DNA from: Dehalococcoidia bacterium
GTDB taxonomy: Bacteria > Chloroflexota > Dehalococcoidia > Lucifugimonadales > Australimonadaceae
Assembly (NCBI GenBank): GCA_034422075.1
Contig: DAOUJX010000006.1
Coordinates: 462 to 64,461, forward strand
DNA: 64,000 nt
Reading direction: 5' to 3'
Shown: in pieces, positions 42,193 to 64,000 of the stretch
Layout of the letters: the number at the start of each line of letters is the position of its first letter
How positions within the stretch are numbered: the stretch's first letter is position 1
The notes under the pieces: model-generated
Database searches by the model: none
What the model was told of the DNA's origin: nothing
The model's input: the letters and a program-made list of their open reading frames with translations, nothing else
Position numbers and translations under genes: made by a program

Positions 42193-42285
42193 GCGATGCC
42201 TCCGTGTTGCGCTTGCGTTGGCAACGTAGACATGAGTCTAGCCGGCGCTTTCGCCAGAATGAGGAGAAGGGTGGCGTGCGGCGCT

Positions 42286-46720: not shown

Positions 46721-46806
46721 GTGTTTGTCCGGTACGAAGACCAAATGCCTTCTTTGACCGGTGTGGTGATTCTCCATCATCGATAGGTAGTCATGGCACA
46801 GTACGC

Positions 46807-46961
46807 TCAAAGCCGTCCCACGCGACCGCTCTCGGCTTCGTCCACGTACTCGCGGGCCACCGAGTAGTGGTTGGACTTCGCGTAGTCCTTGAGCGCCCGC
46901 AACTGCACGGACAAGTCCACGTCCTGCCGGCCGCTTGACACCCTAGCGCATCGGGCCGCAT
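46807..46961 (-). pseudogene. N-terminal remnant of a serine recombinase
   Basis: ARVSSGRQDVDLSVQLRALKDYAKSNHYSVAREYVDEAESGR then TGA; ATG at 46961 is out of frame. Confidence 0.75.
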
Positions 46962-47053
46962 AGGTCAGGGGCTAGGAGTGTAGGCGCCCCTGCTTCTTCG
47001 TCATATCGGCCCACCTGGTTGGCCTGTTTCGCGTGTCAGATTCCAAGCGTTCT

Positions 47054-47482
47054 TTAGGCGGTGACCTCGACCTTGAGGCTGCAGCCCACTGCTCGGAGCG
47101 CCTTTTGGACCTGATTCATGTGGGAACGATGGTCCGGGTTGGCCAGCTTGCGCACGGCTGACTCACTCACACGCAGCCTATCGGCAAGCTCCACCTTGGT
47201 GATGTGCTGCGCTCTCATAGCCGAGTACAGGGCCAGCTTGGCGGCAACGACGGTTGGGACGGGCACCGACACCTGACCGTCAACCGCCTCGCTGGGGGCA
47301 GGGATGTCCCACTTCTCGTGGACGTATCCTGCCAATGCCGTAGCCAGGGCGTCCTCTGCCATATCCAGCGCCTCGGAGCGATCTCTTCCGCCGGCAATGG
47401 CCTCCGGCACATCGGGGAAGGTGGCTACCAGTCCCCCGTCTTCTTCATCGAGGGTCAGTTGACATGGGTATGCGTAGATCAT
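47054..47482 (-). CDS. hicB: HicB antitoxin with C-terminal HTH
   Basis: VATFPDVPEAIAGG..RSEALDMAEDAL...DIPAPS, TKVELADRL. Confidence 0.92.
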   Translation of the reverse strand: MIYAYPCQLTLDEEDGGLVATFPDVPEAIAGGRDRSEALDMAEDALATALAGYVHEKWDIPAPSEAVDGQVSVPVPTVVAAKLALYSAMRAQHITKVELADRLRVSESAVRKLANPDHRSHMNQVQKALRAVGCSLKVEVTA

Positions 47483-47485
47483 GGC

Positions 47486-47692
47486 TCAGAACTCCCTTCG
47501 GTCGATGTTCAACTGACGCAGCATCGCGGCCAGCATGCCCTTCTTCAACTCGCCTCGCTGCACCGTGGTGAAGCGGGAACCGACATAGACTCTGCCGTGA
47601 CTGCCCTTGCCGAGAGCCGGGTCGAACCGAAAAGACTGTCCTGTACGGCGAGCATACTCCCTGGCTCGACTGATGAACTCACGGCTGGTCAT
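47486..47692 (-). CDS. hicA: HicA mRNA interferase toxin
   Basis: 68 aa, GKGSHG catalytic His motif, ELKKGMLAAMLRQL; directly upstream of hicB. Confidence 0.88.
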   Translation of the reverse strand: MTSREFISRAREYARRTGQSFRFDPALGKGSHGRVYVGSRFTTVQRGELKKGMLAAMLRQLNIDRREF

Positions 47693-47785
47693 AGTCTCAT
47701 TATCGCACCTTTATATGCGACCCGAAAGTGGAGATACTACGGTTCAATCAGCGAATCCCACATATCCGCAGAGTGGGGTTGCCGG

Positions 47786-50644
47786 TCACTTGGATCTGTG
47801 CTCGCGTTCCACTGGAATGTCCTTGGTGTACCGGCACGGTGGGTTGGCAAAGTACTCGGTGCAGCCCCAGAAGGGGCCATGCGTACCATCTATCACCCGT
47901 AGGACGCCCAAGCCGCAACGAGGACAGACGATGGGAGGACGACGACAAGCTTGATTGGTACATGAGGCTACTCGCCCTCCGACCAGTGCGTAGCCGACAT
48001 TGCAGTTCGGGCAGCGGGGCGCACGGTGATCACATCTATAGTTGGAGCAAATGAGATGCCTTGGGTTCTGTGATGGGTCGGGGTGCAAGCGACCCTTGAA
48101 ACAGCGGGGGCACTCCGGCGCAAGCTCCCCGATCTGGCGCAACTCGTCGGACTCCTTCAGCAACTCCGTCACAAACGTGGATGGGCGCACCGGATCCGTC
48201 ACCAGGTAGGCACCGATTCGTGCCCGGGTCATCGCCACGTAGAGGAGACGGCGCTCTTCCGCGAACGGGTACGCTCCCCCGGAAACCGGGGGCAACACGA
48301 GGTCCAGCAGTGGATCGTCCTCTACCTTGGAGGGAAAACCCCAACGACCGTCGTTGAGGTCGAGCACGATCACGTAGTCCGCCTCACGGCCCTTCGCCCC
48401 ATGGACGGTGCTGAACTCCACTTTTGGCGACGCTCCCTGTGGTGACCTGGGAAGCTCGTCCCAGCGTTGACGGTAGCGGCCAAGCACCAAGACGGCCTGC
48501 TGGCCTCGTGCCTTTGCCTTGATGTCCGACAAAGCCTGCGCCACCCCGCCTGCCGAATCGGGGTCGACGACGACGGCGATGCCCTCATCTTCGGCTTCGC
48601 TCGCGGGCAGTAACGGTCGCTGGGTCTGCTCCGGGTTCCGCTTCACGAACGCAGTTGAAGGGCCGAGAATCCCTTCGGCGAACCGGAAGGTCTGGCTCAA
48701 TGCCCGCAGCTCCACGTGGCCAAGCAGATTGCCGCAATCACGCAGGAGAGCAACGTCGCTCCCCGCGAATCTGTAAATCGACTGCCAGTCGTCTCCAACC
48801 AGGAAGTAGGCGATGTCCTGACCCTTCAGGGCTTGCAGTAGGGCCATCCGCCCCGCGGATATGTCTTGGAACTCGTCGACCAACACATATCGGTACTTGA
48901 GCTTCCACCGGCCCTCGCGGATGTGCCCAACGGCGAGGTTGATGAGGTCATGGAAGTCCAGTTCATCCTCATCCGCGAGCAGCTTTTGATAGCGGGTACG
49001 CACCTGCTCAAAGACATCCAGGAACCTCTGGTTGCGCCAATGGTCTCCGGTCTGTACGGCGCGTGTGCGCAGCGTGGCGAGGGATAGGCTGGCACCCTTG
49101 ACGTGATCCAAGAATTTCGCCAGCAGTTCTGTTAGCCATGACACCCGCTCGCTCCCCAGTCGTTTGACCAGCGTCTGAGCAGGCACGCGCTCGAATGCGA
49201 CGCCTTCATCCTCAAGCTGAGCACGCAACTCCGAGAAGAGGCGCCCTTGTGAGTGTTGCCAACTGTACGTCTCTATCAACCTTGAGCCAAATTGCTTATG
49301 AATGCCCCTCTTCCACCAGACGCCTTCGAGGTATCCACCCCAACCCGCCGGAGGCAACCCCATCTCGTCCAGCGCGAAGTGCTCGATGTAGATGCCGTAG
49401 GCGGACAGGAAGAAGTCCGGCTGGTACTGGCGGCGTTCCCGCGTCGCGGTCTTGTACTCGTATCGTCTCTCGTACTCGAACTCGATGCCGTACTCCGTGA
49501 GATAGTTGGCAATGGCCAACTCCTCGAAGCTCTTCACGAGGTCTCCGCTCAGCGTCCGCAGCTCGACGTTCCGGACGTACTGTTCGTACTCGTCAGGCGT
49601 TGCAAAGTCGAAGACCGATCGGTACGGAGCATGGTGATAGGCGATGAAGTCGATCACGGCCTTCGACTGCTCTGGGTCGTTGAGGAGCTCTTCGATAATG
49701 GTGGCGAAGGCACGCCTAGACACCATTTCGTCCGTCGCGAACTTGGAAATGCTGGGGGCGACCTCGGACTGGGCTATGACGCGGCGCCCGAAACTGTGGA
49801 AGGTGTGGACGTGCGCCGCCGAGAGGTCCCCTTTGAGCCGTCCTCTTATCTCGGCGACTGCTTTGCGGTTGAACGCCAGGACCAGCACTTCGTCGGGGGA
49901 GACGCCCTGGTTGCGAACGAGGTGGGCGACTCTCCCGACGATGACCGAGGTTTTGCCCGTTCCCGCACCCGCCAGTACGAGGGTCACGTCCTCGTCAGTG
50001 GCGACAGCTTCGGCCTGTTCGTTCGTTAGGGGGTTCTGCAGCGTCTCTAGCGCGACTGTTTGCACAACAGGGGCGCTCTTCGAAGTGAAGAGGCTGTTCG
50101 CACGCCTCCTCGCTTTCTCAAACTCCTCGACTGGTTCCAGAGCTGCAAGTCGCCCGGCCGCCTCTGCCGCTTCTTGGTCAAGTCGCCCTCGGATAAGCCC
50201 TCTGCACTCCTGCAGCACCGGCGCGAGTGCCTCGTGAAGCCTTTTGGAGTCGCTATACCGGGCGTAGCGGTCACCGGCGAAGTGTCGGCGCAGTCGTTCG
50301 TCAAGCTGCTTCAGCCGAGGGCTCAGCGCCTTGGCGACTCGGCCTGCTCTCTCAATCGCCCCATCCCTGACCCATGCTGCTCCCTTCGCGTCAAGGCCTC
50401 CGACTGAGTGCTCTGTTCCGTCCCCGAGGCGAATGGTCAACCGGTGCCAGAACCACGAGGGTCGAACCGTGATCGAGTCGATGGCTCCTACAGAAACCGT
50501 ACGGGTCCCACCACCTGAGATTCCATCGAAGTGAAGAGTATCCCTGATCAGCGATACCCGCGTTGGCCCAGCAGCGAACAGACGATGGAGACGGGCGCTC
50601 TCGGCGGTAATGTGCTTATGGGGTTCGATGCCTACTTCAGCCAT
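47786..50644 (-). CDS. UvrD-family (helicase IV-like) helicase with inserted PD-(D/E)xK-like segment and C-terminal Zn ribbons
   Basis: AGAGTGKT, VDEFQD, VGDDWQSIYRFAG, TFRF, TVHGAKGREAD, EERRLLYVAMTRAR; YQPDFFL..IYIEHF insert; several CxxC at C terminus. Confidence 0.9.
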   Translation of the reverse strand: MAEVGIEPHKHITAESARLHRLFAAGPTRVSLIRDTLHFDGISGGGTRTVSVGAIDSITVRPSWFWHRLTIRLGDGTEHSVGGLDAKGAAWVRDGAIERAGRVAKALSPRLKQLDERLRRHFAGDRYARYSDSKRLHEALAPVLQECRGLIRGRLDQEAAEAAGRLAALEPVEEFEKARRRANSLFTSKSAPVVQTVALETLQNPLTNEQAEAVATDEDVTLVLAGAGTGKTSVIVGRVAHLVRNQGVSPDEVLVLAFNRKAVAEIRGRLKGDLSAAHVHTFHSFGRRVIAQSEVAPSISKFATDEMVSRRAFATIIEELLNDPEQSKAVIDFIAYHHAPYRSVFDFATPDEYEQYVRNVELRTLSGDLVKSFEELAIANYLTEYGIEFEYERRYEYKTATRERRQYQPDFFLSAYGIYIEHFALDEMGLPPAGWGGYLEGVWWKRGIHKQFGSRLIETYSWQHSQGRLFSELRAQLEDEGVAFERVPAQTLVKRLGSERVSWLTELLAKFLDHVKGASLSLATLRTRAVQTGDHWRNQRFLDVFEQVRTRYQKLLADEDELDFHDLINLAVGHIREGRWKLKYRYVLVDEFQDISAGRMALLQALKGQDIAYFLVGDDWQSIYRFAGSDVALLRDCGNLLGHVELRALSQTFRFAEGILGPSTAFVKRNPEQTQRPLLPASEAEDEGIAVVVDPDSAGGVAQALSDIKAKARGQQAVLVLGRYRQRWDELPRSPQGASPKVEFSTVHGAKGREADYVIVLDLNDGRWGFPSKVEDDPLLDLVLPPVSGGAYPFAEERRLLYVAMTRARIGAYLVTDPVRPSTFVTELLKESDELRQIGELAPECPRCFKGRLHPDPSQNPRHLICSNYRCDHRAPRCPNCNVGYALVGGRVASCTNQACRRPPIVCPRCGLGVLRVIDGTHGPFWGCTEYFANPPCRYTKDIPVEREHRSK

Positions 50645-50705
50645 ACGCTTATCGCCTAGAGTTCGGGGGGCCAGCTCTTAACTGCAACACCGTGCCCGCC
50701 AACTC

Positions 50706-51158
50706 TTACACGAACAGCCTCCACGTGAGCAGGCCGACGACCACCAGCAGCACGAGGATCACCACGCGGGCGATGTTGAACAGTTGGTTGGTCACCTTGT
50801 GCTCGTCAATCTCCTTCTCGTGCGCCCACTCGAGCTCAAGAAGGGCCCGCCGGCCGGCTGAGGCGGCCTCCTTGGCCTCATCCCGTTCCTGCTCCAACTC
50901 GGACGCTCTGTGCTCCGCCTCGGACAGCTTCCGCTCCAACTCCCGCACGGTCCGCTCAAGCTCGTCCTGCCTGACGATTGCCCGGTCCAGCAGCTCCTCG
51001 TCGGTGATGTAATTCCCCACCATGCGCACGTAGACCCGACGCCCCTCCCTACGGACCTCGACCTCTCCCGTCCTGATCTTCCGGTCGAGGGTGGACAGGG
51101 AGACCTCCAGTTCCTCCGCTGCATCCGCTTTTGTCACCCACCGGACGCGTTCATTCAT
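50706..51158 (-). CDS. Excisionase/MerR-like HTH + coiled coil + C-terminal TM helix
   Basis: WVTKADAAEELEVSLSTLDRKIRTG, heptad-rich middle, VVILVLLVVVGLLTWRLFV tail; start ATG 51158 preferred. Confidence 0.75.
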   Translation of the reverse strand: MNERVRWVTKADAAEELEVSLSTLDRKIRTGEVEVRREGRRVYVRMVGNYITDEELLDRAIVRQDELERTVRELERKLSEAEHRASELEQERDEAKEAASAGRRALLELEWAHEKEIDEHKVTNQLFNIARVVILVLLVVVGLLTWRLFV

Positions 51159-51179
51159 AGCTATTCCCTCTCCTACCGG

Positions 51180-51297
51180 CTGACACGTCAGGGTTGCAAA
51201 AGTGCGATCGAGATCTTCCCCAGAGCCGCCATTCAGTTTAGTCCAGGTTCGCATTTTGGAGCCTGACACGTCGCAACGTGTCAGGGTGATACGTCAG
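51180..51297. repeat. TGACACGT motif array with 10-bp inverted repeat
   Basis: TGACACGTCAG 51181-51191; cctgacacgt-cgca-acgtgtcagg 51262-51285; TGATACGTCAG 51287-51297. Confidence 0.7.
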
Positions 51298-51438
51298 CCC
51301 CGTTTCATGGCCGATCAGGGGCAAATCGGCATCACCGCGGCGGCGCCTAACCCCGAAAAAGCGCAACTTGCAGCCCCCAGACGCCCTTTGGGGCAGATGG
51401 CGATGTGTCATCGCCATCGACGTGTCACTTCATGCCTC

Positions 51439-53166
51439 CTACAGGACAGCCGCCCCCTCTATAGGACTGGATTCCATCCGGTGGAAGAGCGAGTCCCACC
51501 GGTAGGCCCGCAGGCCGGACAGCGCCAGGCGGGGAGACTCCGGTTCCCACAACGGCCGCCACGACCTTCGAAGTATCCCCGTGCGGTCCAGCACGGGGAT
51601 ACTCGATACCAGGATGGGCAGCGACATCCGGTTCATCCGGTCGACGGTGCGCACGTAGGTGTCCTCCACCTCCTCGGTACCCACCACGAACAGCGTGACG
51701 GGGAACGGCGGCTGGTCCTCGCCCGGTTCGTTCGACCAGTAGTAGCTTCTGTAGGGAAGCAGGCGGGCGATAACCCCCTGCGGATGCCGGGCGCGCAACT
51801 CATGCTCGAGGTAGAACGGTATCCCAAGTCCATCGGCGGTCATCTGACCCACGGCGTCGGGGGCGATGGCGGAGCGGCCCCAGTTGTAGGCCCGGTCGGA
51901 ACGGGCGGTGGGAACGGACCACTCCAGTGCAGAACGCGGGGCGTCTCTGGTCTCTGCCTTAAGCTGCGAGAGGAACCAAGTGATGCCGTCGGCGTGCTTC
52001 GTCTGCCGCGCCCACGTCTCGATCCGGTGGCCCACGTGACGGCGACGGCCCTGTCTGTCGGTGGTGAGGGCTGTGCTCCAGGCACCCCGCGTGGTCGGCA
52101 GCTCGGCGCGGTCCCGGTGCGTGACGTAGCGGATGCCCTCGTTGGACAGCGTGTAGCGGCTGTCCCCGCGTTTGCCCCGGCGCTCGATGAGGCCCCAGGT
52201 CTTCACAAGGCCGTGCAGAATCTGGCTGATTCTTCCTTTGGAAACACCAAGCCATAGAGCCAGGTGCTCGCGGGGGATCATCGGGTAGTCGGTGATGAGG
52301 TCCAGCGTGCGCTTCTCCGAAGGCGTGAGGCCGAAGGCCGGCGAGGCCTGCATCATCCGCTCGGGCCGGGGTAGGGAGGCGCGTTTGCGCTCTGGCGATG
52401 CCGCTCGACTTCCTCCGCCCCCGCTACGGCTCGCCTCGGCGATGACGCCCTCCAATGTGCGGTACCGCCCACCAATCAGGAACCAGGTACTCAGCCAGAC
52501 GTGGCCGCCTCGTCTCTCCAGCGCCTCCCGCGACTCCACGGCGACGAAGCAGCCCCGGAGGTCCCGCTGCTCGCAGAACTGCGCCGTCAACCGCTGCTCC
52601 CAGACGCTGGGAACGAGGACCAGGACCATGCCTGGGCGGCGCCGGTAGTCGTACTCCGCTATGGCCCTCAGCCGGTCGTAGAGCGACCTTCGGCGCAGGG
52701 CCAGACCCTGACGCACTACGCCGAAGCTGTCGCCGTCGTGCAGGGTGATGGTGGCGTCGAAGCGGCCACGGCGATGGAACTCCACGCGAGTGCGCAGCCG
52801 CCCGTCACCGCCGGGGGAAAGTGATGAGGCCAGGCGATAGACGGAAGCCGCGGCGTCCATCCGGCGTAACAGCAGCGTCAGCCACTCCCTCGACATCGGG
52901 TAGGCCCGCACGAAGTCCGAGGGCGTGTCGAAGCCCAGGACCTCAGCGGCCTGCCTGATGCCCTTCGCCGTCAGGCAGTATCGACCGCTCGGCGGCAGGT
53001 GGGCGGTGCCGTGGATGACACGCTCGACTACGCCGACATCCAGCAGGCCGGTCAGGTGGCGGTGGACGGTCGAGTGCGGCTCGCCGAGGATGAGCGCCAG
53101 CTCCGTCGATTCGACGAACGGCATCCGGCTGAGGAAATGAAGCAACTGTCGGTCGGTGAGGCGCAT
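51439..53166 (-). CDS. Replication-relaxation family protein, tandem duplicated domain
   Basis: Two wHTH-led halves (LLHFLSRMPFV...YCLTAKG; TLDLITDYPMI...YTLSNEG); second half has HADGITWF, IAPDAVG, FYLEHE. Confidence 0.72.
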   Translation of the reverse strand: MRLTDRQLLHFLSRMPFVESTELALILGEPHSTVHRHLTGLLDVGVVERVIHGTAHLPPSGRYCLTAKGIRQAAEVLGFDTPSDFVRAYPMSREWLTLLLRRMDAAASVYRLASSLSPGGDGRLRTRVEFHRRGRFDATITLHDGDSFGVVRQGLALRRRSLYDRLRAIAEYDYRRRPGMVLVLVPSVWEQRLTAQFCEQRDLRGCFVAVESREALERRGGHVWLSTWFLIGGRYRTLEGVIAEASRSGGGGSRAASPERKRASLPRPERMMQASPAFGLTPSEKRTLDLITDYPMIPREHLALWLGVSKGRISQILHGLVKTWGLIERRGKRGDSRYTLSNEGIRYVTHRDRAELPTTRGAWSTALTTDRQGRRRHVGHRIETWARQTKHADGITWFLSQLKAETRDAPRSALEWSVPTARSDRAYNWGRSAIAPDAVGQMTADGLGIPFYLEHELRARHPQGVIARLLPYRSYYWSNEPGEDQPPFPVTLFVVGTEEVEDTYVRTVDRMNRMSLPILVSSIPVLDRTGILRRSWRPLWEPESPRLALSGLRAYRWDSLFHRMESSPIEGAAVL

Positions 53167-53384
53167 AATCGGGTCCTAGTACCACGCTGCTCTGTATTCG
53201 GGCACTCGCTTTGGGCGGTAGTTGCCTAACTAGCCAATTGTCGTCAGGCAAGACGTCGCATGTAATGTCTCGCAAACCATTGTGCCGAAGGCAATTCTGT
53301 GCCAAATGCGAAGGGTAGTTGCCCATTAGCAGACATGCACCATGAGCCCTGCCAGTGGTTGAAGGGGAGCACCGGGTCGATGGT

Positions 53385-53684
53385 CTACCTCGCTATGTCG
53401 TGCTGTCTCCAGTCGGGCACGTGCGCCGTCATGAGCGCCTTGAAGAGTTTCCCGTGGTTTGGAACTCGCAGGTGTAGTAACTCGTGTGCGATTACAAAGT
53501 TCTGGAATTCAACATCTTGATTGCCCAGATCGGCCGCGAGAGTGATCGTTCCAGCCGTCGAGCAGGAGCCCCACTTGCGGTTCATGCCCTGGACTCGCAC
53601 GCGCGGTGCGGGTACGTGGAGGCGCTCCGCCCAATGCTCTACCCGTTGCCGCAGTGCCTCCGAACTGTCGTCACGCCTCGGCAT
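53385..53684 (-). CDS. YgjP/DUF45-like Zn metallopeptidase (short form)
   Basis: [21 protein letters not shown] (HExxH); usual position after hsdR. Confidence 0.88.
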
Positions 53685-56664
53685 CGGCGCCCCCGCCCAG
53701 TAGTATCTCTAGGGTCTGTTCCACGATCCGGCCCCGCTCACGGCTCTCCACCTTCAATAGCGGGTTGTACAGCGAAGTCCTGAGCCGTCGGTGCTCGTCG
53801 GCGTTCACGGCGGCGTTGGGAAAGCGTTCCGCAAGCGCCTGCGCCTCTTCTGCGAACCCTATTGCGCCCACACCAGCGGCTTGGAGGGCAACGTCGTCCT
53901 TCAGCGTCCAGTACACCCCGAACGCTCTTGAAGGAAGTGTGCTGTCTCTCGCGGCGGCGGCGGCGGCTTCCTTGTCTTTGGCAAGAGCCTCAAGCATGTC
54001 CAATGCCGCGAGTCCAGTTGTCGTGCGCTCTTCAAGGTCCTTAAGCACGGACTCTGCGCGTTCCTTGAGAGGCCGCAGCACGGATTCTAGCCCCGGCTCG
54101 CTCTCTACCTCCGCTTGGAGGCCGCGCACCAGGTTGAATACCTTGGCCTCATCGGAACCGGACTCCTTCCGCATAGCAGCGAGGGTGCGAAGGTCGAAGG
54201 TCACGGATTTGGTCAGGTTGCCCAAGCCATGCATCGCTGCCGACTCTTCCACAAGCCTACGGGTCTTGTGAGCCAGATCCGCCACAAAGTCGGGGCGGTC
54301 GGCGTAGGCGTTGCGGACTACAGCGTAGAGCTGGGTGAGGCGCCTGAAAGTGTCGATGTGGTTGCGCAGCTCAGCCGATGGCGAGAGTATCTCCCAGAGC
54401 GCCTCTATCTCCTTGTAGGCTGAGAAGAGCTTCTTGCGAGCGTTGGGATCGAGGAAGCGCGTGTACACAATCTGCTCCAAGCGTGGGTCTGCGCTTCCTT
54501 CAGCGATGGCATGGGTTGCCTGCGCCCCGGCTACTTGGTCGCCATCCTCGCTGCCGAGATAGGTCGCCTTTGCTTCGGCGATCTTGTCCTGGAAGTCATG
54601 CATCAGCAGGTCAAGGCCCTCGATCACTCCGCTCACGTCGGAGGAATCGAACTGCAGCGCCTTTCTCAGCTCGCGCAGCACGCCCACGAAGTCCACGACA
54701 AGTCCGATGGGCTTGCTGTGACCTTCTCCGTCCACATACGGTCGGTTTACGCGTGCGACGGCTTGAAGCAGTACGTGGTCGCGCATCGGCTTATCCAAGT
54801 ACATGCAGTACAGCAGCGGCGCGTCGAAGCCGGTCAGCAGCTTATCAGTGACGATGAGTAGCTTCGGATCATCGTTCGCCTTCTTGAACATCAGGCGAAC
54901 GTCCTTCTCCCGCTCCTCCGAAAGCTGAAGTCTGGCAACCAGCGGCCGTTCCACAACATCATTGGCGTTCTCCGAGTACACCGGCTCGCTCCACTCGGGC
55001 GGAAGCAGCTTATCTAGTGCCTGCTTGTACTTTGCGCAGGCTTCCCGGTTTACTCCTACCAGGAACGCCTTGTAGCCCATCGGCAAGACGTTCTCCTGGA
55101 AGTGCTGCGCTACGAATGCTGCCACCTTCTCTATCCGGTCGTCGGCGGTGAGGAAAGTGCGCAAGCCTACGGCCCGGTCCAGCACGCGGTTGAGTTCGTC
55201 GATGTCGGTGACGCCTTCCATCTCGGCTAGGGCGAAGAACTCCCGGTCGAGCTGGGCCGCGGGCACAGTCATCTCGCTGGGCGCCATCATGTGCCGGATG
55301 GGGAGGGTAGTCTCGTCCTTGATGGACTCGGCTATCGAATACTTGTCCAGGTAGCCTTGCTCGTCGTCGGCGCCGAAAACCTTGAAGGTGCCCTCCCCGT
55401 GCTCCGTTCGTGCTATCGGCGTACCCGTGAAGCCGACAATGGTCGAGTTGGGCAGCGCGGCCATGAGGTATGTGCCAAGTTCCCTAGCCACGGAGCGGTG
55501 GGCCTCGTCGATGAACACGTAGATGTTGTCGCGGGAGTTGGCGTCCTTCTCGATGCCCTCGAATTTGTGAATCATCGAGATGATCAGTCCTCTCCTATCG
55601 GTAGCGAGCAACTCTCGCAGCGCTTCCTTCGAGCCGGCGCGCCAGATGGCGATGTCCTGCTGCTGCATCTCGCCCAGCAGCCGCTCGACCCAGCCCGCAA
55701 GCTGACCTTCCAGCTCCGTACGGTCCACCACGACCACCACCGTCGGGTTGCGGTACTCCTCCTTGGCCTCTAGAACCAGCCGGGCGGCGGTGAGCAGGGT
55801 GAAGGTTTTGCCTGCTCCCTGCGTGTGCCAGACGAGGCCCCGGCGCTTCACTGGCTCGGCGCAACGCTCGACGATGCGATCCACGGCCCGGCGTTGGTGC
55901 TGCCTTAGCACGGTCTTCCGCATCTCGCCGTCCTCCACGTAGAAGAGGACCCAATCCCTTAGTGTGCGCAGGAAGTCTGTCGGCTCGAAGAAGGACTGGA
56001 CGGCGAAGCGGTAGCTCTCTTCCTGGGTCTCCTTCCACCGGGCCATGAAGCGGCGCGACAGGTTCCAGGTGGCGCCGTACCAGTAGTCGAGCAGGTGTGT
56101 CACGTTGAAGAGCTGTGCCGCGCCCATCAGCTCGGGCGTCTCGACCTCGTAGCGGCGCAGCTGTGTGACGCCCCGCTCGATGGCGTCGGCGTCCGTCGGG
56201 TTCTTGTGCTCGACGATGGCGACCGGTACGCCGTTGACCACGAACATAACGTCGGCGCGGTTGCCCTTGCGGGCCGGCGGCTTGAGCCGCCACTCCCAGG
56301 TCACGTGCAGGACGTTAGTCGACACATCGTCGAAGTCGACCAGTCTGACCTGTCGGTGCCGCTCTTCGGCCTCGTCATACCACTGCCGCTCGCCTCGCAG
56401 CCAGGCCAGCATCTGGCGGTTGCCTTCAATGGTCGGCGGAAGCGCTTGGAGGTTCTCGACCACTGAGCGGATGACGTTGTCCGTCATCCAGGGGTTGAAT
56501 CGGCGGAGTGCCTCCTCGACCTCGCCGCGAAACAGCAGTCCGGCTTCGCCCCCTCGCATAGCTAGGGCATTCTTGGGGGAAAGCGGCGTCCAGCCGACCT
56601 CCGCCGCGTGGCGGATCATCGGGAACTGGACACTGCCTGCTTCGGTTACGTTGAGTTCAGTCAT
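53671..56664 (-). CDS. hsdR: Type I restriction endonuclease subunit R
   Basis: [18 protein letters not shown] nuclease motif, [35 protein letters not shown]. Confidence 0.96.
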
Positions 56665-56768: not shown

Positions 56769-58196
56769 CTATCGCGCTCCCATCGCACCCCTATCTCGCC
56801 CCCGCCTCCAGCGGGTCAACGGCCCGCGCTTCGTAGACAAGACTAGACCTTGTTTCCTCAACTCCTCCAGCGCCCTCCGTACCTGACGCTCGCTGACGCC
56901 ATGACCCAAACGTGCGCGAACCTCGCGGCGAGTCAAGCCCTCCTCCGCACCGTCTAGCAGGGCAAGAATCGTCTCGCGTCTTCCTTCAGGATCGCTTACG
57001 TCTCTGGTGATAGGCCGAGGGACGCACTGGCTGTGCCGGAATCGCACGGTGACGGCTCCCCCCTCGTCGTCTATCTCCGGGACCGGGAGTCCCGCCCTGC
57101 TCGCCATATCCGCCATCTTGAGCGTTCCGCTGCCCCACTCCTCAATGATCCCGCGACGGTAGAAGGTACGGGCGATCAACGGGTTCCATGGCCGTGACTC
57201 GTGCGGTACGAACAGCTTCTCCGGCGTTAGGCCGAAGTGCAGAGAACCGGAGGAGGTAATCTCCAAGCGGTCGTCGTAGACTGCTATGCCGACCGAACCG
57301 CCTCCAATGGAGTAGTCGCGATGGCACAGAGCGTTCGCTAGCGCCTCTCGTGTGGCCAGAGGTGGATACAGGGGCTCGTCGATGCGCTCGAATCTGCCCT
57401 GCTCGAACCGCCCGGCGATGGGCAGGGTGTCGCGTAGGAAGCGCTCCGCGTTCGTGAGAAGCGTGAACGCGTTGCCGTTGAACTGGCGATTGTCCAGAAA
57501 CTCCTTCCTCTCCGTTCCACGAAAGCGTGCGACTCGCAACAGGCACTGCGGCATCTCAAATTCAAGCCGCTCTGTACTGCCGAACAGCGCCGCTGCAGCC
57601 CGAAGCAGCACGCCGTCGCGCAGAAGCCCGAGCCCGCGCAGCAGGTCGGAGGCCTCGCTGCTTACAGGCTCTTCAAGCCGCCCGCGCCGGACAGCCTCGG
57701 CAACCGTCCGCCGAATCTCCGCCACGTCGAGGTCGTCGATAGACCACCCGGAGGCGGGTTGGTTCTCCCAGCGTTGCTCGCTATGCAGCCGCTCGAAGAG
57801 CACCCGGTTGTACTCTTCGGCGGACATAGCCAGCGTGGTGTTCCCGACGCGGCGGTAGGCGGTGCCACGGTAGCTATATGGCCTTGATGCACCCTGGCCA
57901 GTGCTGACGACGATGATTTCACGGCCATCGTCCGTGGGGAGCCGCTCGATCTCTGGAAACGCCGGGGGATCGATTCTCTGAAGCTCGGCGCTCAACTCCT
58001 CGATAGTGTGCTCGCTGACCTGTTGCCCAGTTGTTACCCCGTCTGGCCTCACGCCGAACAGCACTTGTCCGCCGCGCTGGTTCAGAAAAGCGCACATCGT
58101 CGCGGCAGCCTCCCGGCGCGTCCCTGTCGTCTCCTTGAACTCTAGTGTCTCGGATTCACCGGATGCGGCTAGCGCTGTGATGTGTTCAATGCTCAT
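56769..58196 (-). CDS. Schlafen/AlbA_2 + HATPase_c_4 + HTH protein
   Basis: GESETLEFK..CAFLNQRGG.VLFGV (AlbA_2), REALANALCHRDY, RNPL-like WNPLIARTF, EEWGSG, C-terminal HTH. Confidence 0.88.
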   Translation of the reverse strand: MSIEHITALAASGESETLEFKETTGTRREAAATMCAFLNQRGGQVLFGVRPDGVTTGQQVSEHTIEELSAELQRIDPPAFPEIERLPTDDGREIIVVSTGQGASRPYSYRGTAYRRVGNTTLAMSAEEYNRVLFERLHSEQRWENQPASGWSIDDLDVAEIRRTVAEAVRRGRLEEPVSSEASDLLRGLGLLRDGVLLRAAAALFGSTERLEFEMPQCLLRVARFRGTERKEFLDNRQFNGNAFTLLTNAERFLRDTLPIAGRFEQGRFERIDEPLYPPLATREALANALCHRDYSIGGGSVGIAVYDDRLEITSSGSLHFGLTPEKLFVPHESRPWNPLIARTFYRRGIIEEWGSGTLKMADMASRAGLPVPEIDDEGGAVTVRFRHSQCVPRPITRDVSDPEGRRETILALLDGAEEGLTRREVRARLGHGVSERQVRRALEELRKQGLVLSTKRGPLTRWRRGRDRGAMGAR

Positions 58197-58210: not shown

Positions 58211-59800
58211 CTACCCGAAAATGTCATGCTTCAGTTCCTCGTACACTGCCATTCCAGGCTTGACCAGTGGAGCGAGGGTGTCGCGCATAAATGTCTTAGT
58301 GTCGTTTCCAGGATTTGCAAGGTTCAACATCTGCTTGCAGGCGACGTAAATCTCGCCACTTGCGGGCTTAAGGTCATCTGTGGCGTCGTCCGGCCTCGCG
58401 GTACGGATGCTTTCCTTCATTGAGAGAAGTCCCTCAATCATGCCGCCTTGATCTGTAGATTCTGCGAGGGCGTACAGAACCTGGTCATCAAATAAATAGG
58501 ATTCCAGATTGCGGCGCGAGATCACCCTAACACCAGTCTCCCTCAACTCCGCGACTTCTTCAGGAGACCTGGCGTCTCGGTCAATGAGTCTTAGGACTTC
58601 GGTACCCTGGGTCAGTACCCCAAGTACATATGCGATGCCCCGTTTGTCCTCAACAACTTCCCCAGCGTTCCCACCAGGGACAAATTGTGTCTCGGGCAAC
58701 TCATCCTCGAAAATGCGTTCAAGACAACGCGCATCGTGAGAGTAATTGTTCCCGGCATTCCTGTTCCTCGGCTCGCCTTCACATATCACCACTCGCTCAG
58801 GTGCAACAAGTGCCGCCAAGTCGCCAATTGCAACCTCATAATTGGTGTTCCAGAATACACGGTCTGGGATGGTGGGTTCGATTACCACCGTCTCATCAAA
58901 GTTCCTTCCATCAAAGTCAAGAAACACGACGCTGCCCGGGCTGGTGGCTTCAATGTCTCTCGCTCGGCGCATCATTCCGATAGAGTGTGTCGCCAGCATC
59001 AACTGGCAGCTCTCGGGGACGAGTTCATAGAATACCGACAAGAGTTCAGCCTGTAAGCGTGCATGCATGTGTGCCTCAGGTTCGTCAATGCAAAACATCG
59101 TATCGTCGTAAGCACGCTTTGCCACAACGAAGTCCAGCACCAAGTCGAACACTGCCTTTTCGCCGCCAGATAGGTTCTTGAAGGAGAAACCTTTACTCGC
59201 GCCTTTGGTAAAACGGAATGTCCCATCTTCTAACGGATTCCCAAGGCTATTGAGTTCAATGTCCGGGAAAAGCCTGGAGAAGGCCACTTTGATATCTCCA
59301 ATGACCGATTCTTTGAATGCATCTAGAGTCACTGATCCATCCTCAGGATCAAAGACATCCTCAATTGCCTGACTCACAAGGCGCTGAAAGTTCTTGGCAA
59401 CAGCCCCGTCGTTATCGATCATGCGTGGTGCTCGTATTTCGTTCAGTGGGTCTCCAACTCGTTGGAGATTGTGTACCTGAAACTCAGGATCGTTCCTGTA
59501 AGCCGACCTTATGAAGAAGGATTTCTTAGTATCAGAGACCGGGACATGAAACTCCACTTGGACATCATTCCGCCACTGTTCATGACCAGTGGAGCCAGCT
59601 TTGACGTGGTAATCCGTTTCCCACACCCGATGTTTCCTCGAAGTCCATCCGTGCCACGTAAGAAGCGCATCGAAGAAGGATGACTTGCCACTGCCGTTTG
59701 GTCCGGCAAGCATGATGAGGCGCGCCGTTTGCGGAATACCCTGGAGGGTCAGGTCTGTGAAACGCTTGAAGTCCTTGATAACAGCACTCTTGAATCTCAC
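58211..59800 (-). CDS. ABC-type ATPase fused to TOPRIM (OLD / PARIS AriAB-fusion-like) nuclease
   Basis: GPNGSGKS, LSGGEK, IDEPEAHMH, ATHS; TOPRIM VICEG, LIDRD, RRNLESYL. Confidence 0.85.
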   Translation of the reverse strand: MRFKSAVIKDFKRFTDLTLQGIPQTARLIMLAGPNGSGKSSFFDALLTWHGWTSRKHRVWETDYHVKAGSTGHEQWRNDVQVEFHVPVSDTKKSFFIRSAYRNDPEFQVHNLQRVGDPLNEIRAPRMIDNDGAVAKNFQRLVSQAIEDVFDPEDGSVTLDAFKESVIGDIKVAFSRLFPDIELNSLGNPLEDGTFRFTKGASKGFSFKNLSGGEKAVFDLVLDFVVAKRAYDDTMFCIDEPEAHMHARLQAELLSVFYELVPESCQLMLATHSIGMMRRARDIEATSPGSVVFLDFDGRNFDETVVIEPTIPDRVFWNTNYEVAIGDLAALVAPERVVICEGEPRNRNAGNNYSHDARCLERIFEDELPETQFVPGGNAGEVVEDKRGIAYVLGVLTQGTEVLRLIDRDARSPEEVAELRETGVRVISRRNLESYLFDDQVLYALAESTDQGGMIEGLLSMKESIRTARPDDATDDLKPASGEIYVACKQMLNLANPGNDTKTFMRDTLAPLVKPGMAVYEELKHDIFG

Positions 59801-61095
59801 ACAGGTTCTCCTGTTGGTTTAGGTTGAACAGTGTCCCCACTTCCGTCATCTCGCTTCTCCCCAAGGCAAAACTCCCCCACCCGTACCTCTCCCGTCATCA
59901 ACTTGTGCAGGAGTGTCTTGAACAGCTCCTCCAGCACGGCGCGCTTCCTCCGATGCAGGTCTGTCTTGCGGTCAATAACGTCGAGGATGGCAACGATCTC
60001 TCGCTGCTCATCTATCGGTGGTGTGGGGACCGTCTGCTCTTTGACCATGCGATCGGTCACCGCCGGGTAGCTTGCGCCGGTTTCGATCTCGGCGAGTTGA
60101 TTGACGAACTGGTCACGCTGGACAAGGTAGTAGATGAACCTGTCTACCACCTTCTTCGCGTCACGGCGGAGGACACAGAAAGCAGTCGAACATACATGGT
60201 TGTCCAACTCCTTTGGGACGATGGCGGTGCGAAGCAGCGTTGGTCTTACGGTCGCAAAGATTACATCGTCAGAAAAGATTTGCTTCCTCGCACGGCCAGG
60301 CGCTTCTTTGAGTATGTGTTGGGACGTTGTTTCGATTTGTAGGTAGTCGCGAGAGATAGACGAGACATCCACGTATTCGATTGTCCGGTCACCTTCGGAC
60401 CGCAGATCAACCGAATCAGTGGACTCGCAGAGTGCGCCTAGGGACGATGTCCCCCACCCCAATGGCATCGGTCCGATCTCGGTCTCCTTCTGCGGCTCGC
60501 CCCGGAGGCCACGGGTGAACAGGGTTTGCATCGCAGCGCGCTTCAAGTCCTGTGCGACAGCAACGCTCCGGCCTTGTGCTTTTATCGCTTCGCGTACCTG
60601 ACCGAGTGCAGCACTGATCGCCTGCTGCTCGTCATGCGGCGGCTGGGGCACGTCTAGCCCTGCCAGACGGCTGCGTGACAGGTTCGGTATCGTCGTCTTG
60701 TTGCCCGCACCCTCGAAGATACCGAGCTGTGTAAAAGCGGATTGCAGGAAAAACACATAGAAATGTGGCTCGACGTTGGGATCAATTGGCCGGAGTCGGT
60801 GCAAGTGGTTCTGGAACGACATCGTTTCCACTTCGCCATTCCAGATCGCCGCCCTTCCTATCTCACCGCCCTCGCAGACCAACAGGTCGCCTTGCCTCAG
60901 CAGCTTGGCAGGCAGCTCGTGCCCTGGGATCGACATCTCGTCAATAGACGACAGGTCGACCTCGTCCCAGAGCACGTTGGATGTTCGCAGGAATGGCGTC
61001 TTGTCAAGGCCGTTGCGAGCGGCGGCGGACATCGTCTTGCCCGCGCCTATCTCGAAAAGCTCCCCAAGGGGACGCCATGTCCACGCTTCGCTCAT
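59797..61095 (-). CDS. hsdS: Type I RM specificity subunit S (two TRDs)
   Basis: [49 protein letters not shown]. Confidence 0.95.
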
Positions 61096-62933
61096 CGTAA
61101 GTTCACCAACATCTTCGCCAACCGCTCGTCGATGTCGCGGGCCTCTTCATCTAGGCGCTGCATATCAGCAATAATCTCTGGGATGGGGCGCTGATCCACA
61201 TCATCAGTCTGGCCCACCCACCGGCTTGGACTGAGGTTGTAGTCAGCCTCCTGCGCCTGCTCTCTGGTGATGACCGCAACCTCCCCCTGCACCGCCTCGC
61301 CCTTCAGGAAGGTAGTCGCTACGGGGCGGATGTCATCCTCTGGAATGTAGTTCTTGGGGCGGCCCTTGCCAACGCGACGGCTGGCGTTGACGAGCACGAT
61401 CTTGTCTTTTCGGGCCTCGGGCTTCCGCTTGGACAGCACAACGATGATGCCGGCGGCGCTAGTATTGTAGAAGAGGTTGTCCGGCAGCAGGATCACGCCA
61501 TCTATCAGGTCCCGCTCCACGAACCACTTTCGGATGTTGCGCTCCCGGTCCTCGTGTCTCGCGCCGGAGCCGCGCGTCACCGCGCCGGTGTCCAGCACAA
61601 CCGCTGCCCGTCCGCGCTCGTTCAGGCAGGACAGCGTGTGTTGGAGCCACGCCCAGTCGCCCTTGCCGGTGGTGACGCCTCCAGCAGTGCGGAAGCGGTC
61701 GAAGGGGTCGTTCTCGAAGATGTCTTGGTTGAAGTCCTGGTTCCACATGGGATTGGCGACCACGATGTCGTGGCCGGTGATGCGGCCTGCGGCGTCCTTG
61801 AACTTGGGGTTGATCATGGTGTCGCCTCGCTCTATCTGAACCTCCATGTCGTGGATGATGGCGTTCATGTGGGCTATGCCATAGCTGTCGGCCTGTAGTT
61901 CCTGTCCAGAGAGCTTGAGAGGAACGCGGCTGGTGGGATCGGTATCGCGGGCAATGAGTTGGAGCTTGATAAGCAGTCCAGCCGAGCCACAGGCGTAGTC
62001 GTGGCACGTTTCGCCGGGCCTTGGCCGCATGAGATGCGCTATGAGAAATCCGACCTCGGTGGGTGTGAATTGCTCGCCTGCGCTCTGACCTGCCCCTTCC
62101 GCGAATTTGCGGAGAAGGTACTCGTAGGCGCGGCCCAGGAAGTCGGGCTGCACATCGGCTAGGCCCAAGCGGTAGCGGGGATCGGAGAAGGTCTCTACGA
62201 CGGCGGCGAGCCGGGCCGGGTTGAGTTCGCGCTCGCCGTTGCGCTCCGATGCAAAGTCCACAAGATCTATCACACCGGAGAGAGTGGGGTTGTAGCGCAC
62301 GACAGCTCGCACGGCGCTGGTCAGGTGCTCGCCGATGTCGCGGGGGCGGGTGCTTCGGCCCTGGGCGTCGAGGGGCCAGTCGTGGGTCTCCCGGCCGCTG
62401 ACCACGCTCCACCGGGCCTCCGGCGGCAGATAGAAACGAAGCAGGTCGTGGTCACTCTCCGCAATCTCCTGCGCGACTGCCCGATCCCCAAACTCCTCGG
62501 CCAGGCGGTCGATCTCGTCGTCGAACACGTCGGAGAGGCGCTTGAGGAAGAGTAGAGGCAGCAGGTAGTCCTTGAACTTGGCTGCGTCCTTGGCGCCTCT
62601 GATCGAGCAGGCGGCGTCCCACAGCATCTGCTCCATAGGCTTGGTGGTGGGAACGGCGTCGTTCCGGCGACGGGACCGTCGACGAGTCACTTGGGCTGCG
62701 GACTCTGCTTCATCAACGGCTGGCTCAGCGGCGTCGATGCCCGCCTCGGCAGCAAGTGCGGTGATGGCCGTCCGCGCCGCCTTCTGGGGCAGGGCAACGC
62801 CGCCCTCCCAACGATTCACCGTCGCAAACGACACGCCAAGCCGCTCAGCGAGTTGCTCCTGCGTCAAGTCCAGCCTGGCACGGATGGCCTGAAGGGTTGG
62901 ACTGATGGACCGCCCATCTGTTATATTTGTCAT
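61092..62933 (-). CDS. hsdM: Type I RM methyltransferase M with N-terminal XRE HTH fusion
   Basis: [24 protein letters not shown]; [43 protein letters not shown]; start ATG 62933 preferred. Confidence 0.93.
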
Positions 62934-62939
62934 GTTTGT

Positions 62940-62968
62940 AGTATAGGCACTGCAGGCCAATGGGTCAA
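62940..62968 (-). promoter_or_regulatory. Strong sigma70-type promoter for the hsdM operon, probably leaderless
   Basis: TTGACC (62968-62963)-N17-TATACT (62945-62940), 6 nt, then ATG 62933; no RBS. Confidence 0.75.
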
Positions 62969-63013
62969 CGGCAGTATGCACTAATCCTTGTGTGACGGTG
63001 CGAGAAGGAAGAC

Positions 63014-63892
63014 ATGGCTATTCCGGAATCCCAACTTAGCAGGTGGTCCGACCACGGGGCGCAGGACACTGCCAAACGCACGCATGAAGCAATCAAGAGG
63101 GTGCTGGACGCCCACCGATGGCCACAGGGAATGACCTACGACTTCTACCTACAGGGCTCCTACCGAAACGATACCAATATCCGGGGAGACAGCGATGTTG
63201 ATGTCGTGCTGGAGATGACCTCAGCGTTCAACCATGACACCAGTTCACTTTCTCAATTCGAGCAGCAGGCGCTTGCCTCGTCTTTCCAGCCAGCCACCTA
63301 CGATTGGAACGACTTCAGACGTGAAGTGCTCAAGGCCCTAGAGGGCGGATTCGGCAAAGACATTGTGGCACAGGGCAACAAGTCGATCAAGCTGAAGGCG
63401 GACCCCCCGAGGCTGGCGGCCGATGTAGTTGTTTGCATGGGGTACAGGCGGTATCACACCTCTTACTCATACGCAGAAGGCATCACCTTCTACGCTCTCC
63501 ACGACAAGCGCTGGGTCGTCAACTACCCGAAAGAGCACTACAAGAACGGTGCGGCCAAGAGCAGTAGGACAGGCGACCGATTCAAGCGAACTGTGCGAAT
63601 GTTCAAAAACGCCCGGAATCATTTGGAGTCCACCGGCAGGATCAGCGCTGACCTTGCTCCGTCCTACTTCGTCGAGTGCTTAATCTACAATGCGCCGGAC
63701 TCGGCGTTTCAGTACAGCTTCCAGGAAACCTACCGCTCCATCGTCAACTGGATGGTTGAGTCCGCTCTCGACAGGCTCGTCTGTCAGAATGGGGAGCAGT
63801 GGCTGTTCGGTCCATCCCCTGAGCAGTGGTCGGTGGAGGATGCAAAGGCATTTGCGAATGAACTGGTATCACTATGGAACAACTGGAGGTAG
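63014..63892 (+). CDS. cdnE: CBASS CD-NTase, CdnE-like
   Basis: [75 protein letters not shown]. Confidence 0.95.
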
Positions 63893-63901: not shown

Positions 63902-64000
63902 ATGCACCCCTACGAGGTAGAAGGCCAAAGGAAGGTGGTGGTAGCGCTCGCTGCCGCCAGCATCCTGATGGTTTGGCTCGTCCACGTCGTGCTGGACGTT
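63902..64000 (+). CDS. CBASS 2-TM effector (Cap15-like), N-terminal 33 aa; runs off window end
   Basis: MHPYEVEGQRKVVVALAAASILMVWLVHVVLDV: MHPY start plus first TM helix, 9 nt after the CD-NTase stop. Confidence 0.7.
   Translation, partial: MHPYEVEGQRKVVVALAAASILMVWLVHVVLDV

Follow-up and report, generated by a model that had tools for sequence, protein, structure and literature searches.

The window considered here is a stretch of 64,000 nucleotides from a Dehalococcoidia bacterium (contig DAOUJX010000006.1), and it ends in two divergently oriented defense operons. On the minus strand lies a type I restriction-modification (RM) operon whose first gene, hsdM, encodes a methyltransferase subunit that carries an N-terminal XRE-type helix-turn-helix (HTH) domain (HTH-HsdM). 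On the plus strand, 80 bp away, begins a two-gene type I operon of the cyclic oligonucleotide-based antiphage signaling system (CBASS), with genes for a CD-NTase and the membrane effector Cap15. HTH-HsdM with its leaderless, probably self-repressed promoter is a widespread type I variant that is apparently undescribed; no description was found in the literature searched for HTH-HsdM or for a link between CBASS and hsdM, and regulatory methyltransferases are so far known only from type II systems. The best explanation overall, which we regard as fairly likely, is an autoregulated HTH-HsdM control region by which CBASS is plausibly co-repressed.

The features of the control region and of the genes on its two sides are as follows.

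61092-62933, minus strand: HTH-hsdM coding sequence, 613 aa, with XRE HTH, linker, HsdM_N and N6-adenine methyltransferase (Pfam, PADLOC)
62742-62915, minus strand: XRE-type HTH domain, aa 7-64 (Pfam HTH_3/HTH_31, AlphaFold2, Foldseek)
62637-62741, minus strand: linker with conserved basic patch VTRRR(S)RRR, aa 65-99, predicted disordered (AlphaFold2)
62963-62968, minus strand: -35 hexamer TTGACC of the hsdM promoter (consensus scan, 10/12 matches, 17-nt spacer)
62940-62945, minus strand: -10 hexamer TATACT, ending 6 nt before the ATG and followed by ACAAAC and the ATG
62913-62939, minus strand: candidate operator of tandem 9-bp units, -6 to +21 of hsdM
62939-62931, minus strand: operator unit 1, ACAAACATG, 9 bp
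62930-62922, minus strand: operator unit 2, ACAAATATA, 9 bp
62921-62913, minus strand: operator unit 3, ACAGATGGG, a weak unit
62934-63013, no strand: intergenic region of 80 bp between the divergent hsdM and CD-NTase genes, holding the hsdM promoter and the CD-NTase Shine-Dalgarno sequence AAGGA (63005-63009)
62898-62927, plus strand: candidate CD-NTase promoter, TGGACT-18-TG-extended TATATT (consensus scan, 9/12), within the first 12 hsdM codons
63014-63892, plus strand: CD-NTase, 292 aa, of the two-gene type I CBASS (PADLOC Cyclase PDLC00788, E 3.9e-110, full length)
63902-64000, plus strand: Cap15 membrane effector, N-terminal 33 aa (from the translation; the window end cuts the gene)

Relatives were collected by a scan with one genome per species, which gave at least 464 HTH-hsdM loci in more than 10 phyla, and 80 species-level loci were kept. 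A co-directional gene lies directly upstream in place of a promoter in 11 of the 80 and one locus is truncated, leaving 68 that, together with the window, make up 69 promoter-bearing loci. A control set consists of 80 loci from the same taxa in which the type I hsdM belongs to a family without the HTH, and a third set comprises 30 close CD-NTase loci. CBASS genes in the 80 HTH-hsdM loci were called with an iterated CD-NTase profile.

The HTH-HsdM Protein

The conserved start of hsdM is the ATG at 62933 on the minus strand; the GTG at 62981 that was given in the list of open reading frames (ORFs) lies upstream of the point where conservation among relatives begins (62933). Pfam assigns HTH_3 to aa 14-48 of the protein (E 1.6e-8, 34.9 bits against a cutoff of 23), HTH_31 to aa 13-61, HsdM_N (PF12161) to aa 100-249 (E 1e-22), and N6_Mtase (PF02384) to aa 262-577 (E 3e-74). 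The translation contains DYACGSAG and ANPMW, the S-adenosylmethionine (AdoMet) and NPPW-like catalytic motifs expected of HsdM, and it is matched by PADLOC MTase_I with an E-value of 1e-146. The NCBIfam hsdM equivalog scores 172 bits, under its cutoff of 243, and the protein is therefore a member of a divergent HsdM subfamily.

An AlphaFold2 model of HsdM aa 1-100, built with 47 relatives, has four helices (7-21, 25-32, 36-43, and 51-64) with a predicted local distance difference test (pLDDT) score of 87-93. The HTH domain is nearly invariant across the 47 aligned relatives. In the linker, the pLDDT is below 50 at aa 70-84 and RRRR is conserved in the alignment. Foldseek neighbors of the HTH model are XRE/Cro-C1 proteins, including C.BclI, C.AhdI, C.Kpn2I, C.Esp1396I, and P22 c2, and the CapH N-terminal domain (7t5u) is also among them with a template modeling (TM) score of 0.68 on the target; the Foldseek E-values are all weak, as expected for a domain of 60 residues. 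An initial annotation of this DNA had described HsdM as fused to a complete XRE HTH, like a built-in controller protein, and this description is borne out by Pfam, by the XRE model, and by the RM controller proteins among the fold neighbors.

The 120 closest protein clusters, 86-93% identical, all have the HTH, HsdM_N, and N6_Mtase architecture with the same four domains. HTH-hsdM genes occur in Dehalococcoidia and other Chloroflexota, Latescibacterota, Acidobacteriota, Nitrospirota, Actinomycetota (Acidimicrobiia), Gemmatimonadota, Binatia, Spirochaetia, Opitutales, and Pseudomonadota (Alpha- and Gammaproteobacteria). More distant HTH-HsdM families are 55-57% identical, and some of these are also fused to HsdS. 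In L114 (807-9737), from a family of 57% identity, the HTH, HsdM, and half an HsdS form one 823-aa protein that is followed by hsdR and a YgjP-like peptidase gene; a gene for an HTH protein with a Peptidase_M78 domain (ImmA/IrrE-type) lies 2 kb upstream in that locus.

A tblastn search of 72,556 plasmids gave 2,249 HsdM matches, the best 25 of which start at query aa 91-100, that is, without the HTH; it added no annotated example from a cultured organism. Stand-alone paralogues of the domain were sought with the HTH only, and the 62-74-aa matches that were checked proved to be frameshift pieces of HTH-hsdM in low-coverage long-read assemblies. The only stand-alone HTH ORFs are stubs of 63-72 aa in loci with type III CBASS, most of them decaying.

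The hsdM Promoter and Its Predicted Leaderless Geometry

A promoter scan of 62600-63300 found two promoter-like sites, compared to 0.2 +/- 0.4 in shuffled sequences. One of the two is the hsdM promoter, which is of the sigma-70 type, and no Shine-Dalgarno sequence precedes the hsdM ATG. The hsdM mRNA should be leaderless because a start 7 nt past the -10 hexamer falls on the A of the ATG. The initial annotation had proposed TTGACC-N17-TATACT with +1 at the ATG; its positions are exact, the start being a predicted one, and the same geometry recurs among the relatives, where TAnnnT stands 5-7 nt before an in-frame ATG or GTG in 51 of the 69 promoter-bearing loci and exactly 6 nt before it in 45. 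At least five of the six bases of TTGACA are found 16-18 nt from the -10 in 34 of the 51 re-anchored loci. Leaderless geometry is also kept in the families of 55-57% identity, as in L114 (TTGACA-17-TATACT-gcagac-ATG) and L115.

A Conserved Array of 9-bp Units

The -10 hexamer is directly followed by an array of 9-bp units that runs across the start codon. A position weight matrix scan of the 64-kb window yields a single strong match at 62917-62939 with 39.4 bits, and the next, unrelated match reaches 9.3. The alignment consensus from -15 to +17 reads tg.TATA.TgCA.Ay up to the start codon and ATG.CAaAtATaACAGA from there on. The unit consensus is GCAAAyATr, which has a background of 0.65 matches/kb, and the main lineage has two adjacent units, at -6 and +4. 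Like the promoter geometry, the array is conserved in many phyla.

Since synonymous sites are nearly fixed, the start codon shifts by one unit, some units are inverted, and units are kept where they are non-coding, the constraint on the array is, as judged from the alignments, one on DNA and not on protein. Of the 69 loci, 66, 47, and 63 have A at the third-codon positions +6, +12, and +15, respectively; further in, between +33 and +45, third positions are near-random, with an information content of 0.05-0.23 bits. Isoleucine within the array is always encoded by the rare codon ATA. In L023, L060, and L079, the start codon is located one 9-nt unit further downstream, and some relatives have extra units that gene callers translate as N-terminal extensions of the MANITNITNMT type. 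In L078, L067, L061, L071, and L114, units occur in inverted orientation within the spacer between -35 and -10, and these inverted units cannot be an mRNA or protein feature because they are sited in the promoter spacer. In the families of 55-57% identity, the element travels with the HTH, and the recognition helix SFATVNRWE is common to them. We infer that the array would serve as the operator to which the HTH of HsdM binds. A repeat finder applied to the intergenic region returned one 10-nt inverted pair only and was uninformative.

CBASS beside HTH-hsdM

A cyclase ORF is present in 17 of the 80 HTH-hsdM loci, and L030, in which the cyclase is interrupted by an insertion, and L013, which has a Cap15 remnant, may be added to these. 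Whether CBASS recurs next to HTH-hsdM was a question raised by the initial annotation; it does so in 17-19 of the 80 loci and in five arrangements.

Arrangement (a), CD-NTase and Cap15 head-to-head at about 80 bp: the window, L001, L002, L049, and L026 (truncated)
Arrangement (b), 253-aa cyclase and NucC, head-to-head: L032
Arrangement (c), truncated cyclase, head-to-head: L008
Arrangement (d), type III CBASS (cyclase, HORMA, TRIP13, NucC), co-directional: L003-L006, L012, L015, L020, L021, L024, L051, and L030
Arrangement (e), distant type III CBASS downstream of hsdM: L054

Among the two nearest upstream ORFs of the 80 loci, CBASS parts are the only recurrent defense genes, and the others are housekeeping or transposition genes.

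The loci of arrangement (d) are the best evidence that the units may function as DNA and that CBASS can come under the control of the promoter and unit cassette. In these loci, 10 or 11 of the 80, the type III CBASS ends 16 nt before the hsdM ATG in the same direction with no terminator between, so that CBASS and hsdM apparently form one operon. The promoter and unit array are present once more upstream of the type III cyclase, and this copy opens an ORF of 63-72 aa that repeats the HTH of HsdM as far as the domain boundary (e.g., in L030). The stub ORF looks intact in L030 and is altered in L020 and L003-L006; in L012, L015, L021, L024, and L051 it is interrupted or has no start. In L012, L015, L024, and L051 the start or all homology of the stub is lost, yet the units are kept; TATAnT and two units are retained upstream of the cyclase in 11/11 of these loci. 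The simplest reading is that the cassette still drives the CBASS-RM unit and that the full-length HTH-HsdM encoded downstream would repress it in trans, and the stub would be dispensable because the full-length protein supplies the repressor. Shared control of CBASS and RM in the type III loci is, on balance, probable.

Insertions and variants accompany some of these loci. The type III cyclase of L030 (910-3790) is split by an insertion of ~2.6 kb with a transposase-like ORF, and L003 (2574-3863) has an insertion of ~1.2 kb between the cyclase and HORMA genes. In L054 (5788-12044, Spirochaetia), a distant type III CBASS with 36-54% identity to the L006 type follows HTH-hsdM, and no recognizable hsdS is found there.

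CBASS also stands next to type I operons of other kinds. In L086, L089, L094, L096, L104, L107, and L110 (also L093 and L113; e.g., L089 1740-5467), the same CD-NTase/Cap15 operon stands head-to-head, at ~113 bp, with a different type I operon that begins with a half-size hsdS, and the ~113-bp spacer of these hsdS-first, HTH-less loci carries a conserved GTCAACACG motif. In the control loci L140, L143, and L161 (~2.7-5.3 kb), a type II CBASS with cyclase and E1-E2/Cap2 is arranged head-to-head with an HTH-less hsdS-hsdM operon.

The CBASS Operon of the Window and Its Candidate Promoter

The distance of only 80 bp between hsdM and a divergent CD-NTase gene, as initially annotated, is confirmed by the intergenic coordinates and by the full-length PADLOC cyclase match. 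The CD-NTase scores below the cutoffs of NCBIfam NF053871 (314 bits, cutoff 350) and Pfam SMODS (25.9 bits, cutoff 26.5), and its translation holds the active-site motif GSYRND...DSDVDVV (GS...DxD). A full Cap15 of 192 aa (Cap15_TM and Cap15_CD_rec, Pfam E 1.5e-31) occupies the same place in relatives and is found in 28 of the 30 CD-NTase loci.

The second promoter-like site of the scan, with TGGACT at 62898-62903 and TATATT at 62922-62927, is the only one on the plus strand in 62600-63300, and none besides the hsdM promoter lies in the 80-bp spacer. Its predicted start at ~62934 would give the CD-NTase mRNA a 5' untranslated region of ~80 nt. The -10 of this candidate promoter is the reverse complement of operator unit 2. 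Because the predicted starts at ~62934 (plus) and 62933 (minus) abut, the polymerase footprints would overlap, and a protein bound to the units would cover both promoters.

The head-to-head junction with HTH-hsdM is present in 7/30 close CD-NTase loci, and the same junction is found in L084, L085, L088, L095, L106, and L109. Three paralogous CD-NTase/Cap15 copies without hsdM occur in one genome, CBDBPQ01 (L087, L090, and L091). What these copies retain is the spacer plus ~37 nt from the start of hsdM, a segment that takes in the extended -10 and a GTTGG motif and in which the hsdM ATG is mutated. The retained hsdM relic fits a promoter at this position, as far as the letters go, and suggests that the CBASS module and its control region were duplicated or mobilized as a unit in CBDBPQ01.

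The Remaining Operon and Its Surroundings

The minus-strand operon extends from 62933 to 53385 with the tightly packed order hsdM-hsdS-ATPase-Schlafen-hsdR-peptidase. The genes that follow hsdM are listed below.

59797-61095, minus strand: hsdS, 432 aa (Pfam Methylase_S, two stretches); overlaps the hsdM stop by 4 nt
58211-59800, minus strand: embedded ABC/AAA_21-type ATPase, 529 aa (Pfam AAA_21, SMC_N; PADLOC AriA/PtuA-like); present in 18/80 relatives
56769-58196, minus strand: embedded Schlafen/AlbA_2 and HATPase_c_4 protein, 475 aa (Pfam); present in 41/80 relatives
53671-56664, minus strand: hsdR, 997 aa (Pfam HSDR_N, SWI2_SNF2, ResIII, T1R_D3-like)
53385-53684, minus strand: YgjP-like HExxH metallopeptidase, 99 aa, the last operon gene (PF01863, E 2.3e-26, profile positions 113-200 of 207)

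The hsdS gene is next after hsdM in 71 of 80 relatives. Gene overlaps of 14 nt (53671-53684), 4 nt (59797-59800), and 4 nt (61092-61095) suggest that translation may be coupled along the operon. The slot between hsdS and hsdR holds variable cassettes in relatives, with other clusters elsewhere, and the embedded ATPase gene has a local GC content of only 0.53. In 17/80 loci (L022 7877-8248 and 16 others), but not in the window, hsdM and hsdS are separated by an ORF of 123 aa with weak matches to retroviral-type aspartyl proteases (Pfam E 2e-5).

The operon does end in an HExxH peptidase gene, as first annotated, at 53684-53385. The analogy to CapH/CapP that had been built on this peptidase does not hold; an identity as CapP (M78) was rejected, since the protein belongs with the YgjP/M48-like peptidases (PF01863) that usually accompany type I RM and its PADLOC capP match covers only 41 residues around HExxH with an E-value of 2e-4. 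A YgjP-like peptidase also follows hsdR in L114, and in the RptR islands the same peptidase gene follows hsdR (PMC12255303).

The window is chromosomal, with rpoB and rpoC at 22.8-30.9 kb, and a lower-GC island extends from ~38 kb to the window end. The part that precedes the RM operon (38000-53200) has a GC content of 0.53-0.59 compared to ~0.64. It contains genes for a UvrD-like helicase (47786-50644), a class I methyltransferase (41266-42192), and a MarR and Replic_Relax protein (51439-53166), and two proteins of 867 aa (43590-46193) and 320 aa (42631-43593) without a Pfam match. No tRNA genes were found within the 64-kb window.

Proposed Mechanism and Alternative Explanations

In the proposed mechanism, the HTH of HsdM, probably within an M2S or R2M2S complex with two HTHs each, would bind the 9-bp units and occlude RNA polymerase, so that the whole RM operon would be held at a set level by negative autoregulation. 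We hold with good confidence that HTH-HsdM would act as an autorepressing type I counterpart of the SsoII, Ecl18kI, and EcoRII methyltransferases and as a functional analogue of RptR. In the window, bound HTH-HsdM would cover the hsdM and CD-NTase promoters alike, and CBASS would be repressed together with RM; this second step is put forward tentatively, as somewhat less probable than its opposite.

Several observations weigh against these proposals. At the operator, the 9-bp period is unusual for XRE dimers, and a simple dyad is rarely intact. Such a palindrome (TGyTATAnT at -15 to -7 versus AATATAACA at +7 to +15) was considered and replaced by the 9-bp unit model; it is perfect in only 2/69 loci and mostly matches at ~5-6 of 9 positions, its left arm is just the extended -10, and a covariation of -13 with +13 has a p of 0.003, uncorrected for phylogeny. 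Co-regulation in the window rests on one candidate CD-NTase promoter, which has a poor -35 and which a consensus scan of L088 and L090 does not recover, the -35 being absent there. The -10 of this promoter is conserved in every family member and says nothing about CBASS because it is kept without a divergent gene too, and L087, L090, and L091 go back, as paralogues, to a single truncation event. At the level of the survey, 61-63 of the 80 HTH-hsdM loci are without a CBASS neighbor.

The strongest alternative, possible but less likely than not, is that the two operons of the window are neighbors only, with HTH-HsdM autoregulating RM, CBASS being controlled independently, and the 5' flank of type I RM operons serving as a preferred landing site in defense islands. 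In the HTH-less hsdM family from the same taxa, a cyclase is found upstream in 8/80 loci, several of them head-to-head and including type II CBASS with E1-E2, and 9/30 close CD-NTase/Cap15 loci are paired head-to-head with the other type I operon, which starts with hsdS and has an HsdM without HTH. The difference between 17-19/80 and 8/80 (odds ratio 2.4-2.8, Fisher p 0.08-0.03, phylogeny uncorrected) is not robust, and CBASS-linked loci are scattered over the HsdM tree. The weakness of the candidate CD-NTase promoter and the location of the region in a lower-GC island point the same way. These Chloroflexota-rich genomes generally tend to have CBASS next to type I RM, HTH or not; adjacency alone does not show HTH-mediated coupling because the HTH-less family also adjoins CBASS, and it was rejected as proof after the control family had been examined. 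On the other side, the 80-bp intergenic region has no other promoter-like site, and in the type III loci CBASS lies directly behind an HTH-type promoter and operator with hsdM 16 nt on and no terminator, where independence is hardly possible. The original hypothesis that one fusion protein co-regulates RM and CBASS is strengthened by these type III loci, in which CBASS stands behind a copied promoter and operator, and is weakened for the window, where it depends on the single candidate promoter; the HTH-less family, too, has CBASS neighbors.

It is unlikely that the conserved element is no operator at all but a promoter discriminator or a 5'-terminal mRNA feature aiding leaderless ribosome loading, with the HTH serving, for example, to tether the methylase to DNA. 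Part of the array (+1 to +17) does fall within the 5'-terminal stretch of the mRNA and is rich in A/CA, and a CA-rich sequence downstream of the start reportedly enhances leaderless translation, a result ascribed to Martin-Farmer and Janssen (1999). Against this reading, unit 1 lies upstream of +1, inverted units are found in the promoter spacer of five lineages, units are kept where no ORF follows, and the element accompanies the HTH and its common recognition helix in the families of 55-57% identity.

Autorepression by HTH-HsdM could be extended to a titratable sensor, in which the HTHs would repress only as long as methylase complexes are free and unmodified invading DNA would draw M2S or R2M2S away from the operator and RM, the embedded ATPase and Schlafen genes, and CBASS would be de-repressed together. 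We consider this improbable, though it may be likened to M.EcoRII, which represses only when its sites are methylated; if true, the pay-off would explain the recruitment of at least five kinds of CBASS cassette to the hsdM promoter.

Promoter competition as in Ecl18kI and SsoII, in which HTH-HsdM would shut its own promoter and so turn CBASS on once enough methylase has accumulated, is very doubtful. The predicted starts put each -10 on the transcribed side of the other promoter with overlapping footprints, and this logic is documented for regulatory methyltransferases (PMC12707154, section 11), but the units cover the CD-NTase -10 (62922-62927, that is, unit 2), so that binding should block and not free it, and constitutive activation of CBASS by a housekeeping level of methylase has no obvious benefit. 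Least probable is a CapH/CapP-like switch in which a signal of damage or infection would lead the HExxH peptidase to cleave the linker of HTH-HsdM and free RM and CBASS from repression: a predicted disordered linker with a conserved basic patch, a metallopeptidase within the same operon, the CapH/CapP precedent (10.1101/2022.04.27.489752), and proteolysis as also considered by the RptR authors (PMC12255303, Discussion) speak for it, but the peptidase is YgjP-like and not M78/CapP, accompanies type I RM with or without HTH (PMC12255303; L114), and has only 99 aa that cover part of its profile, and cleavage would leave an intact HTH that could still bind unless oligomerization were lost.

Transcriptional control of type I RM is almost unexplored (PMC12707154, section 20), and no dedicated regulator had been described before RptR in 2025. 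If the proposal is true, a methylase subunit that carries its own repressor is a second, independent solution in a large cross-phylum family, and this family comes with a recognizable and easily tested promoter and operator cassette. Whether different anti-phage systems of one island share a switch can be asked concretely at the loci in which CBASS lies behind this cassette or abuts it. The frequent head-to-head arrangement of CBASS and type I RM, which is seen whether or not the HTH is present, gives another, independent clue to the organization of defense islands.

Comparison with Known Systems

Type I CBASS with Cap15 is a two-gene operon for a CD-NTase and the Cap15 effector with two transmembrane segments and a beta-barrel; the window has the CD-NTase gene and the start of a probable Cap15 gene, and the operon itself is not unusual. 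Unusual for such an operon are its start 80 bp from a type I RM promoter and the lack of a regulator gene of its own. With CapH/CapP (10.1101/2022.04.27.489752; PMC13228613), the window has in common an XRE-type HTH encoded beside a CBASS operon; in contrast, CapP, an M78 peptidase with a cysteine switch, is not present here, and the HTH is part of HsdM and is without the CapH oligomerization domain.

The C proteins of type II RM systems (C.PvuII, C.AhdI, C.BclI, and C.Esp1396I) have the same XRE fold as the HsdM HTH and regulate their own promoter. The C.PvuII mRNA is leaderless. C proteins are stand-alone proteins of ~70-100 aa that are co-transcribed with the endonuclease; their C-boxes are placed at the -35 or upstream of it, and an initial activation by them later turns into repression. 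The window, in contrast, has its HTH as part of a 613-aa HsdM, and the element lies over -10 and +1, a purely repressive position.

The closest functional parallel is RptR, a repressor of type I RM defense islands that binds three 9-bp direct repeats overlapping the -10 (PMC12255303, NAR 2025). The layout of its islands, regulator-hsdM-hsdS-embedded genes (e.g., RNA-binding protein and AAA ATPase)-hsdR-M48 peptidase, is common to the window, and the variable slot between hsdS and hsdR is reminiscent of the DarTG2 or 'RNA-binding protein + AAA ATPase' genes embedded in the RptR islands. RptR itself stands alone as a dimer-forming protein of 79 aa, its four-helix fold is without a close PDB neighbor, it is found mainly in Gammaproteobacteria, and its site is TAGCTA, whereas the regulator of the window is an XRE HTH fused to HsdM with the unit GCAAAyATr. 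A PDB sequence search gave no RptR match.

The closest architectural parallel is found in the type II regulatory methyltransferases M.SsoII, M.Ecl18kI, and M.EcoRII, whose N-terminal HTH binds between overlapping divergent promoters (PMC12707154, sections 10-11). An N-terminal HTH fused to the methyltransferase via a flexible linker is common to these enzymes and to HTH-HsdM, as indicated here by Pfam and AlphaFold2. In the type II systems, the operator lies in the enzyme's own promoter, which overlaps a divergent one, and causes autorepression; the unit array over -10 and +1 is the candidate for this role in the window. The known enzymes are C5-cytosine methyltransferases of two-gene type II systems, in contrast to HsdM, an N6-adenine enzyme encoded in a type I operon of several genes with a predicted leaderless mRNA, and the divergent partner is the system's own endonuclease in the M.SsoII type but an unrelated CBASS CD-NTase in the window. 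HTH-HsdM would work like the regulatory methyltransferases but is not a member of that group by descent.

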